From a virus (lineage: Duplodnaviria; Heunggongvirae; Uroviricota; Caudoviricetes), in IMG/VR virus record IMGVR_UViG_2778261631_000002: a DNA stretch of 64,000 nucleotides. One strand, 5' to 3'. A model generated the notes under the pieces. The model saw only the letters and a list, made by a program, of their open reading frames with translations. It did no database searches and was not told where the DNA came from. Position 1 is the stretch's first letter. Every line of letters starts with the position of its first letter. A program made the position numbers and the translations under genes. Shown piece after piece: positions 484 to 33,180 of the stretch.

Positions 484-1676
484 TAATCATCATCCCCGTA
501 CAGTTTGCGGGTAACTTCTTCGTCTTCCTCCTCGTCTTCGTCCAGATCCTGTTCAAGCCATGCTTCGTTTGATATGCCTTCCGCATCGACATCACCATAA
601 CCACCTGTATCGACGATATCGGCAATTTCTTCTCTACGATGCTCAATCCACAATGCCGCATCAGCGCGGCGGCTGGCGGCCCGTTCTCGCGCGATTTTAT
701 CCAGATCTTCAAGTGATGGAGCGCCAGATGCTGTTTGGTTTTCCTCATCATCGGTATTGGTCTTAGGAGCACGCAGATCGGCTTTGATTTGCTCCAGCAT
801 CAGGGGCGGCACTTTTCCTCCATGCGCCTCGATGAATTCAGCCGCTTCCAGCACTGACCAGTTATTTTCACGCTTTCGTTCGTATGCCAGCTTAACAATG
901 CCAGCTTGCCCCATAGACAAAGCGTGCTTTTCCGCCTCCCGGCTTTCTTTTCGATAGTTATTCCGGATGCTGTAAATGGTGTTGATCAGACTGCTTATCT
1001 GCGCGGAACAGCTGTTTAGCATGCTCGCGATACGGTATTCAGGCGGAGTACCTTCATCATCGTCTTTTTGCTGATCGCGCATTTCCTGCACCAGGCGAAT
1101 ACACGTATCCCTGGCGTTCTCCAGCATAAGGAGATGAGAAAGAGACTTTTCAAGAAGAGTGGTTTCCAGAACATCGGCCCCGGACCGACGCAACATAGCG
1201 CGCGCGGCCTTCCGCGCTTCAACGTTATCTATCAGGTAATCGCCAGCTTCGAATTCAAAGCGTTCACCATCATCATCCAGGGTGTCGCGTTCCAGGCGAT
1301 CACGTAAGGTCCGGTGGGCGCGGTTGATCACGTCATGATCATCCGAACGATCATTTATGCGCTTATTTTGGCGCTTCGCATTCTCGACTGCGGCACTGAC
1401 AACGGCATTAACTCTCTGTTTTTCCGCTATTTCAGCCGCAATATGATCACCTGCATGTTGATCATTAGAGTGATCAATGATCATGCTTTTTAGTGGCTTC
1501 CTGACTGGCTTATTTGGCTTGCGGCTGTCCGCAGTCCTGGTGTCTTCTTTGAAGGCACGGAGATAACGACGTGCGGTATTAGGGTTAAGATTAAACTCGG
1601 CGGCATACTGTGCGATGGTGTAACCACCATCTCGCGCCAGGCGAGCAAAATTCTTCTTGTGATCGTCCCAGGTCAC
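483..1676 (-). CDS. pacA: PacA terminase small subunit / pac-site recognition protein (397 aa)
   Basis: 397-aa ORF with acidic C-terminus; contains the GATC-clustered pac site within its coding sequence; length and context match P1 PacA. Confidence 0.8.
1326..1482. other. pac packaging site: seven GATC (TGATCA/G) Dam sites in about 157 bp, in two clusters flanking the presumed cleavage region
   Basis: GATC at about 1326, 1337, 1349, 1445, 1460, 1472, 1479; this is the known architecture of the P1 pac site inside pacA. Confidence 0.75.
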
Positions 1677-25559: not shown

Positions 25560-26320
25560 AGCATTCTTGGTGGACCTGTAGATTGGGATATGAACCCGTT
25601 ACAGGAGAATGCTCTTACCTGTTACGTGCTCCGTTTCGTGGAGCTAACGGCGGGTGATCGGGCCGCACCAGACTGGACTTATTTCAGCGTTATGCTCATG
25701 CCAGAGAATCAAACTGTGATGGTCGGTGCTGAACTCCGACACAGGGTTGTAGCAAGCCCCGCAAAGCGCGCACTACTGTAGTTGCGGCACATCAGCCTGT
25801 GCATTCACCACAATGTTGAGAACACTGGTTGTCACGCTGCAACGCAACATTTATTCGTAGATTGGGATATGACCCCGTTACGCCAGTGTTCTCAACGTTG
25901 TAGTGCCGGTTACGGTTCCGGCCAGGCCTCTTCCTCAACGGGGTGTTCTCCATACGGACTACCGTTTATTGGTCGTTCCTGCGGTTTATGTTGTGAAGCC
26001 AGATGCTTATCTTCTGGTTGCTTCAAAGAGCTGCACTTCATCACAACGGTAAGAGCACTCGATGCATTTAAGCCAAGCCCCATAAGGGAGAATGCCCTTA
26101 CCTGTTGTGTTGTGATGACCGGTGCTGATCTCCGGCTTGCGGTTATTTCAGACTCTCACGGGCGTTTAATTGCCCCGCCGAACAGCTCTTTTCCGCAATA
26201 GCTGCAATGTCTTTCGCGCATCAGCCTGCGCATTCATCACAACGGTAAGGGTACTTCGTAGGGATTCGAACCCTCTGCCAAGCTCGGCGATCTCCGACGT
26301 CGCAAAATACCCTTACCTGT
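25560..26320. repeat. Non-coding block of repeats and long inverted repeats with tRNA-like T-arm fragments
   Basis: Recurring GTAGATTGGGATATGA(A/C)CCCGTTAC units (about 25566 and 25850); inverted repeats CACAACGGTAAGGG...CCCTTACCTGTTGTG enclosing GGGTTCGAATCCC (26240-26318) and similar at 26037-26112 and 25810-25900; no convincing ORF. Confidence 0.5.
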
Positions 26321-26325
26321 TGTGC

Positions 26326-26401
26326 TGGTGCCGATTAACGGACTCGAACCGCTGACATCCTGCTTACAAGGCAGGCGCTCTACCAACTGAGCTAAACCGG
26401 C
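26326..26401 (-). tRNA. tRNA-Thr (anticodon UGU)
   Basis: 76-nt cloverleaf GCCGGTTTAGCTCAGTTGGTAGAGC...CUUGUAA loop...GGTTCGAGTCC...CCA. Confidence 0.85.
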
Positions 26402-26403
26402 AT

Positions 26404-26479
26404 TGGCGATGGTGGATGGATTTGAACCATCGACCCGTTGATTAACAGTCAACCGCTCTAACCGCTGAGCTACACCATC
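26404..26479 (-). tRNA. tRNA-Asn (anticodon GUU)
   Basis: 76-nt cloverleaf GATGGTG acceptor, CUGUUAA anticodon loop, GGTTCAAATCC T-arm; 2 nt from tRNA-Thr. Confidence 0.85.
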
Positions 26480-26943
26480 ACTTGCCGGGTACGTCTCCGG
26501 CGAGGGCTTCCACCTCCGTATGCTTTTCGGCGCACCGCGCCCTGGCTGCAATTCGGTAACAGGGGATGCACAACCCTGGCTTCCAGCGTGATTAGCGCCT
26601 TCAGCATGACGGGATATACCCGTAAATTCGTGGAACTGTACCCAAAGTGCTGTTAAGCACCGCTGTTACGCTGAAAAGAAAACGCAACAGGAAAGGACGC
26701 TGACCAACAGATGGCCCCTTCTCGTTCATCTGGTTAATCACACCAGCGCCCTTACCTGTTGTGCCTCCCCGTTCCCTAATACACAGACGGGGACACTCTG
26801 CGGTCGATTTTTTGACGGGGGACGACTCATACCCCGTGGCATCTGGCTTCTTAGGCCGCTACCATCATCAGATCATCGTTTGCATTTACTTTAATGGTCA
26901 GTTTCTAAACCGCCGCAAAGTCGCTAACCATGACGAAAACCCT

Positions 26944-26970: not shown

Positions 26971-27144
26971 AAACTGGAAGCTCGTAACGCACTTCGGCGT
27001 TGCCACTTAGGCGCATGGTCAACCTGGCAACTCGGTGGTTTGTCTGGGAGGACTAGGCCCAGCCATGCTTACCGCCGCGCCTGTCGCGGCTAACAGCTAA
27101 ATCGCTCTATAAATCACGATTCATTGAGGCGATATTACACTAAT

Positions 27145-27161
27145 AAATTTATTAGAGCAAT
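27145..27161 (-). promoter_or_regulatory. C1 operator, exact consensus, overlapping the dmt stop
   Basis: Minus strand ATTGCTCTAATAAATTT, 17/17. Confidence 0.65.
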
Positions 27162-29416
27162 ATACCCAAAACGTCATGAGCTACACCTCGAGTGTCCCCC
27201 TTACAAGACACAGAACGTCTGGCAAAAAGAGGTTCCACTCTGAAGCCACTGTCATGATAAAGCTCTCTGATGTTTGGCGCGCCACTGTTAGTAATGAGAA
27301 CCTTTGCACCTCGACGATGAGCATCCGTCAACAGAGACACCAGGCGTTTTTGCTCTTCAAACTTAAAGTCATGACCGGAATAGTTCGTGAATCCCTCTGT
27401 ATTTGGAAGCGGTTCATACGGCGGATCGCAAAAGATGACATCTCCTTCTCCGGCAGCTTCAATCACCGCTGCAAAATCACCGCATACAAACTCAGACCGC
27501 CCTTCCGCACCGAGGAAGGCTTCCATCTCCTGTAATGGGAAATACGGAGTTTTATACTTCCCATAACCGACATTGAACTCACCGGCCTGGTTGTAACGCG
27601 TCAATCCGTTAAAACAATGTCGGTTCAGGAACAAAAACGCCGCTGCGCGATGTAAATCATCATAGACTTGTTTGTTAAACGCATTCCGTACTGCCAGGTA
27701 TCCTTCCTGTGTGTTGTAGTCCTGGAAGAAACGATGTGCCAGAGTGATAAGTGAATGCGCCTCGCGTTGCAGAGTCTTGTAAAAGTTAATCAGGTCAGCA
27801 TTCACATCATTTAGCAGATTTTCCTGGTATCCGGCATTCATGAAGACAGCTCCGCCACCAACGAAAGGTTCAATCAGGCGCTTCCCTTCTGGCAAATAGC
27901 GAAAGATTTGTTCCAGAACACCAAATTTTCCACCAGCCCATTTGAATATGGACCGTTCGAATTCTGCCGCTGGTTTAACTTTTCGCTCTTTTGTTTCACT
28001 TCCTTCTTTCTGCCGACATACGGCCTTAGTAATCCGATCGCCAATCCAGCGCATTACTGGTATTGCCATACTATTGCCGATCGCTTTGTAACGCGGTCCG
28101 TCAGCTGCAAGCATCGCGGCCTCTTCTTCGCTTAAATCTGGATAGTGATTGCGAAGATATGCCAGTTCATCTGAATTAACTTTTTTACGCTTTTCCGTCG
28201 GGATCAACGTATGCCCATCAGGAAAACCTTGCAGCCTTTCACATTCGACAGGGGTAAGACGGCGGACAGCTACTTCTGCGTTTCTTACTTCATAGCAAAC
28301 AGCTGTTGGATTTTTAGCCATTAGAGATGGTGAAGTATTCTTAGTTGCAGCATGTTGTGTACCGCTCATACGCTCAGGAAAAGCCAATGTAACAAGATGC
28401 TCATGGCTTTCTTGCTCACGTGCCCGCAATGTACCATGCCCTTCTGACCAAAAACCTGCTCCTGTGCTGCTAAAAACGGCAAGGTCAGTGGCATCTTTAA
28501 AATCTCTTGCCTTTACTGTCGATGCGGTTTCATCGTCAATATATTCCCCAAATGCCGCCATCCTGAAACCGTTTACGGCTTTCGTCGATTTCATACCGGG
28601 AGACATGCCAGCGTGTAGGCATGGATTTAGGCTTTCGCCACTGATTGCAGCGCCATTTGCAGTAATGGCGGAAGCGATTTCCTTCTTTTTTCGGCTCGGC
28701 GCAATATTCCGGCGCACGCCTTCGAACTCAAAAAGTACCGTTGCGGGATCGAGGTCTGTTCGAGCACTTGCGACAACAAACACGCGTCGGCGTCGTTGTG
28801 CCACTCCGAAGTATTGGGCATCAAGGATTCTCCAGGCCACCTTTCGCTGCGGTCCATAAATACAACCACACTGCGGCCACTTTGGAACATGGCAACCGGT
28901 TTTGCCATCCCACCGCCAGAACGCGTTGCTTTTTCCTGATTCAGGTCGATCACCTGGTTCAAATGGCACATCTTCTCCAGCCAATCCGGCAAGGAAACAT
29001 CCGAAGGCGTTATCTGCGGATGACAAGACTCCTGGGACATTTTCCCAGACGATAACGGCTGGTTTGAGAAATGACTCAGCCCGTTTGTCGTCAATTGCAT
29101 TTGCAAGCTCCACATACTTTAAAGTTAGCGCGCCACGCTCATCATCAAGCCCACCACGTAAGCCCGCGATACTGAATGCCTGACAAGGTGTTCCCCCGAC
29201 GAGCACATCAGGGGATTCGATTTCCCCAGCCAGGACTTTTTTGGCAAGTTTTGTCATGTCGCCAAGGTTGGCGACATGGGGCCAGCGGTGCGCAAGAACG
29301 GCAGATGGAAAAGACTCGATTTCAGCAAACCACACCGGACGCATACCCAACGGTTCCCAGGCAATACTCGCGGCTTCAATTCCACTGCAAACAGATCCAT
29401 AGCACAGCTCTTTCAC
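27152..29416 (-). CDS. dmt: Dmt, fused C5-cytosine and N6-adenine (Dam-like) DNA methyltransferase (754 aa)
   Basis: N-terminal C5-MTase motifs ([17 protein letters not shown]); C-terminal Dam-like region with DPPY. Confidence 0.8.
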
Positions 29417-30318
29417 TGCTTAGCCTCTCCACCAAGGGCATTTACCAGAGCATCAACCAGGCACGAAATTTCACTGGTCAACAGGAAGAAATCTGCGTCC
29501 AGTCGCTGCGCAACATCTTCACTATCAATATCAGAGTTCTGCTCAAGCAATTCATCCGCAAATTTGACGCTGGTAAGGCTGAAGTTATGGTCCAGTGTAA
29601 ATTTAATGCGGTTCTGCCAGTCGAGTGCCAACTTAGTGACGAGCTTGCCAGCTTCCAGGTGTGTGGAAATTTCATCGCTTCCCAAATCCTGCTTTTTCAC
29701 TCGGGCAATACCGCCATCCTCAAGCACTGCCTTAAGTTCTGCCGCATCCCCCATTTGAAATCCCTGTGGAGCACTACCATCACGTACCCAGTCGGTCAGC
29801 GTTAACTCAATGGGATTTTCAACACTTAGGGGAACAACAGGAAGAGAACCCAGAGATTTACGCATAAGCGCGAGCATATCCTCTGCCTGCCGCGCGCTGG
29901 CATTGATATAGATACGTTTAGTTGAACCGTCGTAGATCGCCTGGATAACAGAAAACTTTGAAAAAGCCCGTGGCAGAAGAGAATGCAGAACTTCGTCTTT
30001 CAGGGAGTCCTTCTCTGTTTTCTTCAGTTTACGCGCTTGTTCTTGCTCAAGTTTTTCAATTTTTTCTTGAATAGCTCGCTGGATAACCGGCGGGGGAAGA
30101 ATTTTTGTTTCGCGCTTTGCTTCAACAAGGATAAAACCATTTCCATGCATAGCGATAACTTCGGAATTATCACCAAATGGCGATACAAAACCGAACTTGG
30201 CCATATCCTGACTACCGCATGGTGTGAAAAGGATCATTTTCTTTTTATCTTCTAAGTCGGTCAGATCCGCCTCACGAGAAAGTTTATAAATAGTAATATT
30301 TTTCCAGTGCTTAAACAT
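29413..30318 (-). CDS. hrdC: RdgC homolog (recombination-associated protein), start taken at [13 protein letters not shown]
   Basis: High similarity along the length to E. coli RdgC (...[10 protein letters not shown]...[22 protein letters not shown]...LGGEA...). Confidence 0.75.
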
Positions 30319-30667
30319 GTTGTAACCCTTGAATATCAACCACAGAAAGCTCGTCTTTATAGAAAAAGGCCAAGTTGTGGCACCCCCTCGTTTGAGCGTA
30401 TGAGCTGGGACCAATTTCGTTCTTCCAGACAAATGGCTTCAAATCCGTACGGCGAAGCATAAAAACGCGATTTGTTCCGCTCTGATTCCCAATGAGGCAA
30501 AAGCCTTCTTTCACCTTGATAGCCTGCAAGTTGTCGAGTTCACCGCTGGTTACACGGCTATCGAACTCCTTGCGGCTTATTAGCTCCATCTGCATCTGAC
30601 GACTCCAAACAAATGCCCATTGAAGGGCGATGGCTGAATGGTACCGAAAACACGATATAAAAAACAA
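30311..30667 (-). CDS. Hypothetical protein upstream of hrdC (start uncertain, possibly the internal MQMELIS)
   Basis: First ORF after the C1 operator at 30667. Confidence 0.45.
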
Positions 30668-30683
30668 TATTTATTAGAGCAAT
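30667..30683 (-). promoter_or_regulatory. C1 operator upstream of the hrdC-dmt operon, in a divergent region
   Basis: Minus strand ATTGCTCTAATAAATAT, 16/17. Confidence 0.6.
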
Positions 30684-32919: not shown

Positions 32920-33180
32920 TTATCCACATTATCCACTGGATAGATCCAATAATTAGGTCCATACAGATCCCAATTAGATCCATATAGATCCCTGATCGTT
33001 GCAGGCCGCGCCACGTCTGGCCTAGAAGTGTATCGCGATGTGTGCTGGAGGGAAAACGATGTGTGCTGGCGGGATAAAAATGTGTGCTGACGGGTTGCTA
33101 ATGTGTGCTGGCGGGATATAGGATGTGTGCTGACGGGAAAGCCTGGGTAGTTATCATCACTTATAAAAACTATCCACATA
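32920..33180. other. Plasmid origin oriR: tandem DnaA boxes, GATC-containing heptamer repeats, five 19-bp iterons (incC), distal DnaA box
   Basis: TTATCCACA / TTATCCACT at 32920-32937; five AGATCC-type GATC repeats at 32943-32997; iterons (G/A)ATGTGTGCTG(G/A)(A/C)GGG at 33038-33140. Confidence 0.8.

Follow-up and report, generated by a model that had tools for sequence, protein, structure and literature searches.

We propose, with a probability of roughly 0.78, that the dmt gene in the window (the whole stretch of 64,000 nucleotides of viral DNA analysed here) encodes, as in other P1-like phage-plasmids, one polypeptide with two independent SAM-dependent methyltransferase (MTase) modules that would be expressed during lytic growth, one providing GATC N6-methyladenine (m6A) for the packaging site pac and the other C5-methylcytosine (5mC) for anti-restriction. 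Judging from the conserved P1 elements, dmt would be transcribed from Pdmt, with C1 shutting this promoter off at Odmt, and Dmt would be made in lytic growth and be absent from the plasmid prophage. The adenine module, whose methylation of GATC is experimental for P1 itself and not for the window allele, would keep rapidly replicating phage DNA fully GATC-methylated, allowing the pacase to cut pac. The cytosine module most likely places 5mC on the progeny DNA in a sequence context set by the variable block of aa 243-384, and this mark would then shield the packaged DNA from the matching restriction enzymes of the host infected next.

The preliminary description of this DNA had outlined a 754-aa protein with C5-cytosine and Dam-like halves and had taken it for P1 Dmt, and both statements are borne out. 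One ORF on the minus strand (27152-29416, 754 aa) appears in the ORF listing with the coordinates and length given earlier, both halves score far above the Pfam and NCBIfam cut-offs, and their motifs could be located (Table 1). The gene is 98.5% identical to P1 dmt at the nucleotide level and 98% at the amino acid level, with the same synteny and the same operators, and it is 100% identical to the copy in the E. coli plasmid NZ_CP074369.1, an identity that runs over 24 kb. Near-identity, the uhr-hrdC-dmt operon, the C1 operators, the neighbours shared with P1 and the downstream tRNA-Asn/Thr all point to orthology with P1 Dmt, and we assign the ORF as dmt, carried by a P1-like phage-plasmid. 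In PLSDB, 498 plasmids carry dmt. By its domain content, Dmt is a single polypeptide in which a C5-cytosine MTase is joined to a Dam-type adenine MTase. The fusion itself is already known and is no novelty, as it is reportedly present in the P1 genome paper of 2004. The GenBank P1 record (AF234172 / NC_005856) describes Dmt as "bifunctional", acting on the N6 of adenine in GATC and "perhaps" on the C5 of cytosine.

Table 1. Features in and around the dmt operon, with the pac and oriR sites of the same window.
Feature	Position	Strand	Remarks
dmt CDS	27152..29416	-	754 aa; GTG start overlapping the hrdC TGA stop (GTGA); GGAG upstream
C5-cytosine DNA methyltransferase module	28007..29416	-	aa 1-470; motifs follow the canonical order I, IV, VI, VIII, variable region, IX, X
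Codon 74, GGG (Gly)	29195..29197	-	TGG (Trp) in the reference P1 c1-100 records
Catalytic Cys78 codon (PCQ)	29183..29185	-	uninterrupted here; intein site in related alleles
Variable block at the target-recognition domain position	28265..28690	-	aa 243-384; wholly replaced in P7-type and other alleles
Lys/Glu-rich linker between modules	27959..28006	-	aa 471-486
Dam-family (D12, alpha-class) N6-adenine MTase module	27155..27958	-	aa 487-754
DPPY catalytic motif	27416..27427	-	aa 664-667
Oban a/b, divalent C1 operator of the downstream ban operon	27134..27161	.	perfect-consensus half 27145-27161 overlaps the dmt stop codon
hrdC (RdgC-family)	29413..30318	-	upstream of dmt; translationally coupled
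uhr	30311..30595	-	first gene of the operon
Odmt (Op68) C1 repressor operator	30667..30683	-	overlaps the Pdmt promoter region; identical to P1
pac packaging site	1298..1479	.	inside pacA; 8 GATC, two groups of TGATCA/G-type hexamers; matches the P1 region with the annotated pac cleavage site
oriR GATC heptamer repeats	32943..32994	.	5 GATC in AGATCC heptamers beside the TTATCCAC DnaA box; 99.6% identical to the annotated P7 oriR

The C-terminal module has the sequence hallmarks of an adenine MTase of the Dam family. It scores 192.8 bits with PF02086 (D12 N6-adenine MTase; Pfam cut-off 22) and 249.7 bits with TIGR00571 (dam; NCBIfam cut-off 114.85), and the alpha-class order is kept, with FVGGG at aa 518-522, D537 at the place of EcoDam D54, and DPPY. 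The EcoDam structures match the module at E=3e-57, with 39.7% identity over 262 aa. In EcoDam, K9, Y119, N120, L122, R124, P134 and Y138 were reportedly assigned GATC-contact roles by Horton et al. in 2006; five of the seven are identical in Dmt (K9, N120, L122, R124 and Y138), and the other two positions differ (Y119 to F602 and P134 to G617). Against the host Dam equivalog model NF008152 the score is 244.4 bits, under the cut-off of 441, and the module is classed as a member of the Dam family and not as an orthologue of host Dam. For P1 Dmt, specificity for GATC is established experimentally, reportedly by Coulby and Sternberg in 1988. A divergent Dam module (dN 0.22, dS saturated) is found in the lineage of the 762- and 854-aa alleles.

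Dmt had also been proposed to control both GATC-dependent pac cleavage and oriR function, with the two sites lying in the same window as dmt. Both sites were indeed located there. The link to pac is upheld, as the review PMC12707154, citing Sternberg & Coulby 1990, states that P1 depends on GATC methylation at pac and cannot do without dmt in Dam- hosts. Control of oriR by Dmt is doubtful, since dmt lies behind the C1 operator Odmt/Op68, which is conserved here and should keep Dmt repressed in the plasmid prophage state, when oriR fires. oriR is a GATC-methylation-dependent site, and its methylase in the prophage is likely host Dam.

The order of the operon is uhr-hrdC-dmt, with dmt last. Every allele inspected keeps the synteny with hrdC/rdgC and the translational coupling, the divergent 762- and 854-aa lineages among them, and dmt and hrdC are induced together during P1vir infection. 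A generic sigma-70 scan missed Pdmt; this promoter and Odmt were placed via alignment to the annotated P1 promoter and operator. Expression could also start within dmt. The C5 module would then be active, a separate, Dam-only product would arise from an internal start or promoter, and the fusion would be only partly functional as one polypeptide. The P7 record predicts such an internal late promoter, LPdam2, within the gene, and a purine-rich GAAGAAGAGG stretch precedes an in-frame ATG at aa 435. However, the -22 box of LPdam2 has two mismatches in the window and the promoter is not annotated in the P1 record, while M435 falls within the C5 module, ahead of motif X, and a product begun there would drag along a useless C5 fragment. 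In addition, many prophage lineages have a single ORF for C5 and N6-adenine methylation, with the adenine part belonging to either of two unrelated MTase families, and this recurrence speaks for selection of the covalent fusion itself. Taken together, a separate Dam-only product appears quite unlikely, and we favor Dmt acting as one polypeptide.

The N-terminal module scores 127.3 bits with PF00145 (C5 DNA methylase; Pfam cut-off 22) and 121 bits with TIGR00675 (dcm; NCBIfam cut-off 100.65). A motif script placed motif I (CSGIE) at aa 10-14, motif IV at aa 75-82, ENV at aa 125-127, QRRRR at aa 207-211, motif IX at aa 385-399 and GNSM at aa 447-450. The preliminary description had allowed for an N-terminal module lacking catalytic residues; on inspection, none of the six strongly conserved C5 motifs is missing. 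In an AF2 model of aa 1-486, built on a 58-sequence alignment, the C5 core has a pLDDT of 80-93 and the strand-loop-helix of motif I a pLDDT of about 80. The best 50 Foldseek matches in the PDB are all C5 DNA MTases or close homologues with a probability of 1.0, among them M.HhaI (2e-8), M.HaeIII, DNMT1, DNMT3A, MET1, M.MpeI and the Dnmt2 homologue EhMeth. A candidate Zn site formed by C175, H176, C183 and C185 of the insert that separates motif VI from motif VIII was rejected, as these residues fall outside the invariant alignment columns.

The module could also be a catalytically dead relic that helps the Dam half, then the sole enzyme of the protein, to bind DNA or to fold. Our full-text literature search found no report of C5 activity, either as 5mC made by Dmt or as a cytosine target sequence for it. 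Motif I is non-canonical, as in C-S-G-I-E only the central Gly fits the textbook FxGxG. Laboratory P1 is fully viable despite a G74W change beside the catalytic loop, and one natural variant (P0093, 992 aa) is without motifs IX-X; these two cases indicate that the C5 half is dispensable under some conditions at least. Against a relic, the catalytic motifs are all intact and near-invariant across 150 diverse family representatives that are pairwise less than 50% identical. Both ENV and QxRxR are present in 149 of them and a contiguous PCQ in 142, and with CSGIE in 132 the departure in motif I is family-wide. The reading frame is open in all eight alleles examined as DNA, and dN/dS, estimated from few substitutions (7-32 synonymous per comparison), is 0.14-0.24 for the C5 core versus 0.05-0.15 for the Dam module. 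On these estimates, the C5 core is under purifying selection. Moreover, cassette exchange is restricted to the target-recognition position, which would be purposeless if the enzyme were dead, and the W74 of laboratory P1 looks exceptional, being found in none of the 355 family proteins retrieved and nowhere in IMG/VR. A dead C5 module is thus unlikely, and a working cytosine MTase is the reading we retain.

The window Dmt and P1 Dmt differ at 14 amino acids, the main difference being G74 versus W74. Both P1 c1-100 records have W74, which stands four residues ahead of the catalytic Cys; position 74 is G in 350 of the 355 family members and A in the other five. In the window the G74-G75 pair ahead of the catalytic Cys is intact, and this allele would be unimpaired and fit for testing C5 activity. 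Since W74 is confined to the c1-100 lineage, a methylome run on standard P1 c1-100 could give a false negative. The G74W difference was not mentioned in the papers covered by the full-text search. We tentatively suggest that the Dmt cytosine half may be active in natural P1-family alleles, with its specificity reset by swapping the cassette between motifs VIII and IX and with the longer versions perhaps multispecific, and that this activity may have been missed owing to the G74W change unique to laboratory P1, itself perhaps selected through decades of passage in McrBC+ E. coli K-12.

The swap of the variable block falls precisely between motifs VIII and IX. After the conserved flank, the block has 87 aa in P7-type alleles and 169 aa in the window allele, and it reaches about 277 aa in the 862-aa type. 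Phages that are otherwise 97-99% identical fall into no fewer than five length classes over this range. Its length differs between alleles through the presence or absence of segments. The AF2 model has a pLDDT of 20-30 in this region, which makes it uninformative for the architecture of the target-recognition domain (TRD), the target and DNA recognition, and among the structure matches searched there was no characterised close homologue or solved structure spanning it. A recurring short pattern, [ST][LVI]...[LVA]V, had suggested tandem repeats and hence a multi-TRD block; no repeat is supported at the sequence level, as the self-alignment scores do not stand out from those of shuffles. For the P1-type, 862-aa and 822-aa alleles the best off-diagonal self-alignment does not exceed the mean of 60 shuffles, and for the P7-type allele the score is 22 against a shuffle mean of 19.4 and maximum of 27.

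The diversity of the block also bears on what an active cytosine module would be for. Rather than classical anti-restriction, its purpose could be phage-internal epigenetic regulation or another form of counter-defence, such as marks for packaging, replication or recombination acting with the RdgC-like HrdC. The conserved synteny and coupling with hrdC/rdgC would fit such a purpose, as would the regulatory role that the adenine half already has at pac. However, a recognition block that is diversified among nearly identical phages is the signature expected of an arms race, and a fixed phage-internal site would not predict such diversity. We therefore hold an internal role to be very unlikely and continue to favor anti-restriction as the function of the cytosine module.

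In about a quarter of the related alleles, a 341-aa intein sits exactly at C78; the window allele is without it. The intein retains all splicing blocks in these relatives, and the intein-bearing alleles are 960, 1013 and 1095 aa long. Inteins usually home into conserved active sites. A Dmt intein was not reported in the literature covered by our full-text search.

Natural dmt alleles such as that of the window are intact and kept by purifying selection, and their diversity lies at the very place where C5 enzymes read DNA, which makes the two-decade-old "perhaps C5" annotation directly testable. P1-like phage-plasmids are widespread in Enterobacteriaceae as carriers of resistance genes, and the pattern suggests that they may cross restriction barriers with exchangeable cytosine-methylation specificities.

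Within the P1 family, P1 Dmt (AAQ14041.1) is like the window protein in its 754 aa, its GTG start, its uhr-hrdC-dmt operon and the presence of both Odmt and Oban. P7 Dam (AAQ07538.1), the alleles of 672, 710, 762, 822, 854 and 862 aa and the intein forms have an identical catalytic C5 core. In most of the P7-type and other P1-family alleles the Dam module, linker and operon are also identical to those of the window, whereas P7 Dam and other P1-family alleles have a different block between motifs VIII and IX, and some of them carry the intein at C78. Outside the family, EcoDam (2G1P/4GBE) and M.DpnIIA (2DPM) align end to end with the C-terminal module; unlike EcoDam, the Dmt adenine module is fused to a second enzyme.

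On the cytosine side, Dmt has the fold and motif order of the M.HhaI / M.HaeIII type, including the PCQ Cys, ENV, QxRxR and GNS, but with CSGIE in place of FxGxG and a much longer variable region. ENV and QRRRR lie 82 aa apart in Dmt, against about 42 aa between ENV and motif VIII in M.HhaI, and the longer spacing of Dmt holds an additional beta-insert of about 40 aa that is modelled with confidence. M.BatI, an orphan MTase of a Bacillus anthracis prophage with 5mC activity proven by bisulfite sequencing (PMC8936443), is likewise a prophage C5 enzyme with Cys first in motif I. The likeness is one of description, and M.BatI is much smaller than Dmt, has a short TRD and is unfused. In the Bacillus phage enzymes M.SPRI, M.Phi3TI, M.H2I and M.Rho11sI, one enzyme protects against several restriction-modification systems. 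None of these multispecific enzymes is known to be fused to an adenine methylase. Their tandem, independent TRDs have been shown experimentally, whereas self-alignment of Dmt gives no significant internal repeat. Like Dmt, they are phage-encoded, are made on induction and have a long region of variable length between motifs VIII and IX.

A single long open reading frame with a GTG start in the ORF listing (27152..29416, minus strand) encodes the 754-aa Dmt, an extent and length on which the preliminary description was exactly right. The C5-methyltransferase motifs (PCQ, ENV) that it had placed in the N-terminal half, and the Dam-like DPPY in the C-terminal half of the same polypeptide, are located there (table), and each half clears curated thresholds by a wide margin: PF00145 at 127 bits and PF02086 at 193 bits in Pfam (cut-off 22 for each), TIGR00675 at 121 bits (cut-off 100.65) and TIGR00571 at 250 bits (cut-off 114.85) in NCBIfam. 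The gene is 98.5% identical to P1 dmt, 96-99% identical to dmt/dam in 18 P1-like phage records and 100% identical to a gene on NZ_CP074369.1, a 93.5-kb E. coli plasmid (bovine) that matches the window at 100% over 24 kb as well; the source is therefore a P1-like phage-plasmid. The proposed agreement with P1 Dmt holds, as the P1 GenBank record calls the enzyme 'bifunctional', acting on N6 adenine in GATC and 'perhaps at C5 cytosine', and the P7 record describes P7 Dam in the same way. Accordingly, the fusion is real and the gene, a known one, was read correctly; the finding as such is already known. Both modules look functional; in P1 the adenine activity is well established, while we infer the cytosine activity, for which support is now better in the window allele than in the reference phage. 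Three modest additions, namely a substitution in laboratory P1, an exchangeable recognition block and, in relatives, an intein placed at the catalytic Cys, make the old C5 question directly testable.

Features of dmt and its surroundings (window positions unless given as aa of Dmt; protein motifs from a script motif search; L numbers are compared loci, with L003 RCS47 and L009 OP279344.1; P numbers are retrieved family proteins)
Feature	Position	Strand	Remarks
motif I CSGIE	aa 10-14		C5 half
motif IV GTPCQAFS, catalytic C78	aa 75-82		C5 half
ENV	aa 125-127		C5 half
QRRRR	aa 207-211		C5 half
15-residue motif (IX)	aa 385-399		C5 half
GNSM	aa 447-450		C5 half
FVGGG	aa 518-522		C-terminal part
DPPY	aa 664-667		C-terminal part
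RCS47 dmt, putative intein at its aa 78-418	L003:1501-4788 (dmt)		intein also in L006, L009, P0001, P0108; insertion point at window 29183-29185
C1 operator Odmt/Op68	30667-30683		identical to P1
uhr	30311-30595		after Odmt/Op68
hrdC	29413-30318		after uhr, before dmt
divalent C1 operator of ban operon	27134-27161
tRNA, CAT anticodon	24610-24685	minus	downstream of dmt, as in P1
tRNA-Thr (TGT)	26326-26401	minus	downstream of dmt, as in P1
tRNA-Asn (GTT)	26404-26479	minus	downstream of dmt, as in P1
pac	1298-1479
oriR	32943-32994

When the C5 half was checked for loss of catalytic residues, none was found to be lost. An exhaustive search with aa 1-486 returned 4,410 representatives (50% identity clusters, E<=1e-30); among the best 150 of these, ENV and QxRxR are each found in 149, GNS in 147 and an uninterrupted PCQ in 142. 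The uncommon motif I form CSGIE occurs in 132 of the same 150 and is therefore a family trait, not decay. M.BatI, an experimentally active prophage 5mC enzyme, also has Cys first in motif I (PMC8936443). An AF2 model of the C5 part, built on 58 homologues, is confident over the catalytic core (pLDDT 80-93, aa 1-230), the beta insert between motifs VI and VIII included, and the best PDB matches of the core are all C5 DNA methyltransferases (probability 1.0), with M.HhaI first (2e-8) followed by DNMT1, M.HaeIII, DNMT3A and M.MpeI. The insert, about 40 aa and family-specific (aa 147-200, window 28817-28978), is modelled as four beta strands (pLDDT 84-90); W180, G184, G188, R191 and W195 are invariant in it across homologues. 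All eight dmt alleles compared keep the reading frame open, and their codon-aligned Nei-Gojobori dN/dS of 0.14-0.24 in the C5 core vs 0.05-0.15 in the Dam module show purifying selection, the values being imprecise given only 7-32 synonymous substitutions per comparison. A natural variant of 992 aa (P0093) has lost C5 motifs IX and X through an in-frame deletion (NTSP/CRQKEG) and keeps the intein and Dam module; it is an example of C5-half decay.

In the P1 c1-100 records AF234172 (L001:3220-3222) and AF234173 (L008), codon 74, four residues before the catalytic Cys, is TGG (Trp); the window (29195-29197), P7 and RCS47 have Gly74 (GGG). Across 355 retrieved family proteins this position is Gly in 350, Ala in five and Trp in none, and an exact-pattern scan of IMG/VR matched the W74 form in 0 contigs and the G74 form in 72. 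From this conservation we infer that W74 impairs catalysis. Possibly it is an inactivating change specific to the laboratory lineage, and one may speculate that passage on McrBC+ K-12 selected it. In practice, C5 activity might go undetected in methylome work done with standard P1. OP279344.1 ('P1 del res del mod'), deposited as P1, encodes a 1013-aa Dmt with G74, an intein and a P7-type variable block between motifs VIII and IX, vs 754 aa in reference P1; laboratory 'P1' stocks are therefore not uniform at dmt.

The window dmt lacks the intein. In RCS47, Ro157c2YLVW and many plasmids, Dmt is 1095 or 1013 aa long, with an additional 341 aa placed exactly between P77 and C78 (GGTP/C...VVHN/CQAFS), so that the +1 Cys is the catalytic cysteine of the C5 methylase. 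Given its Cys1, TxxH block B, two LAGLIDADG motifs and terminal His-Asn, the insert is predicted to be a class-1 intein with a LAGLIDADG endonuclease. Hint_2 and LAGLIDADG_3 of Pfam exceed their cut-offs in it, and its GC content is 43% vs 49% in the exteins. A 960-aa form of Dmt has a mini-intein without the endonuclease domain, and six distant family representatives (among the best 150 of 4,410) are interrupted at the same site. About a quarter of P1-like plasmids sampled carry the intein (intein-length dmt in 15 of 60 evenly spaced among 498 plasmid hits), on P1-type and P7-type backgrounds alike. A literature search found no published mention of a Dmt intein.

Around dmt, the window retains both the gene order and the control elements of P1. 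The dmt GTG overlaps the hrdC TGA (GTGA), with GGAG upstream, which points to translational coupling of the two genes; a P1vir transcription preprint reports dmt and hrdC induced together in infection. At the 3' end of dmt, the last codons and the stop codon overlap that half of the ban operator which fits the consensus perfectly, ATTGCTCTAATAAATTT (27145-27161); a repressor-binding site therefore constrains the Dmt C terminus (ILL before the stop). Seven further 17-mers match the C1 operator consensus with <=3 mismatches (2285, 11308, 13400, 13449, 17073, 46231 and 47901) and are presumably other P1 immunity-controlled operators; the window total is 10 vs 0.35 expected. A 104-aa 'ORF' at 26237-26551 was rejected as a protein gene, being tRNA genes read as protein.

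The alignments of Dmt aa 487-751 with E. coli Dam structures (E=3e-57) and M.DpnIIA run from end to end. The adenine module is 39.7% identical to EcoDam over 262 positions and shares DPPY, FxGxG, the D54 equivalent, K9, W10, N120, L122, R124 and Y138; unlike EcoDam, it has Phe for Y119 and Gly for P134. The roles of the EcoDam residues are reportedly those described by Horton et al. in 2006. As it scores 244 bits against a host-Dam equivalog cut-off of 441, the module is a paralogue within the Dam family and distinct from the host enzyme. The second sequenced laboratory P1 (AF234173, dmt(del)MB) has a 319-bp deletion at gene nt 1817-2135 (aa 606-712) that takes out DPPY and shifts the frame, so the phage can do without the Dam half when its host is dam+.

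Both pac and oriR lie in the same window as dmt, as had been noted, and Dmt was proposed to control each. For pac the link is established in P1, which needs GATC methylation there, dmt being essential in Dam- hosts (a 2025 review, PMC12707154, citing Sternberg & Coulby 1990; repeated in other papers). The case for oriR is weaker, since oriR is used in the prophage state, when dmt should be switched off through its C1 operator. Abeles and Austin reportedly found in 1987 that establishment of mini-P1 fails when the host is dam-; with this requirement and the C1 control of dmt, host Dam is the probable methylase at oriR. Protection against restriction by each of the two Dmt halves is plausible.

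The two halves have also been exchanged. In the 762-aa lineage, the Dam module attached to a P1-type C5 module gives a dN of 0.22, with dS saturated, and in the 762/854-aa lineage of pE2863-2 (L004:1477-3765) and pPSS-10_3 (L005:1477-4041) a near-identical C5 module precedes a linker and a Dam module that diverge strongly, which shows recombination between the two halves. In pE2863-2, glnS (glutamine-tRNA ligase) lies directly downstream of dmt. Distant C5-family members are fused to PF02086 or to the unrelated adenine methylase PF05869, and these fusions sit in chromosomal prophages of Enterobacter, Citrobacter, Salmonella, Kosakonia and Phytobacter. Those of 637 aa with PF05869, 'phage N-6-adenine-methyltransferase' (P0275, P0279, P0284, P0309 and others; Enterobacter and Citrobacter prophages), look like a convergent C5+N6A fusion; as the single chain recurs, it can be argued that covalent fusion is selected.

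Outside aa 243-384, P7 Dam (672 aa) and the window protein have identical sequences; within this block the two are unrelated, and P7 Dam is shorter by 82 aa. The block lies between motifs VIII and IX, the position of the target-recognition domain (TRD) in C5 methyltransferases, and further length classes in the protein database (710, 822, 854 and 856/862 aa) differ by segments present or absent in this interval. The AF2 model is blank across it, and off-diagonal self-alignment scores for an internal repeat in the block were not above shuffled controls. The variable segments were considered as possible tandem TRDs, such as those carried by the multispecific C5 enzymes of Bacillus phages (PMC12707154, PMC8936443).
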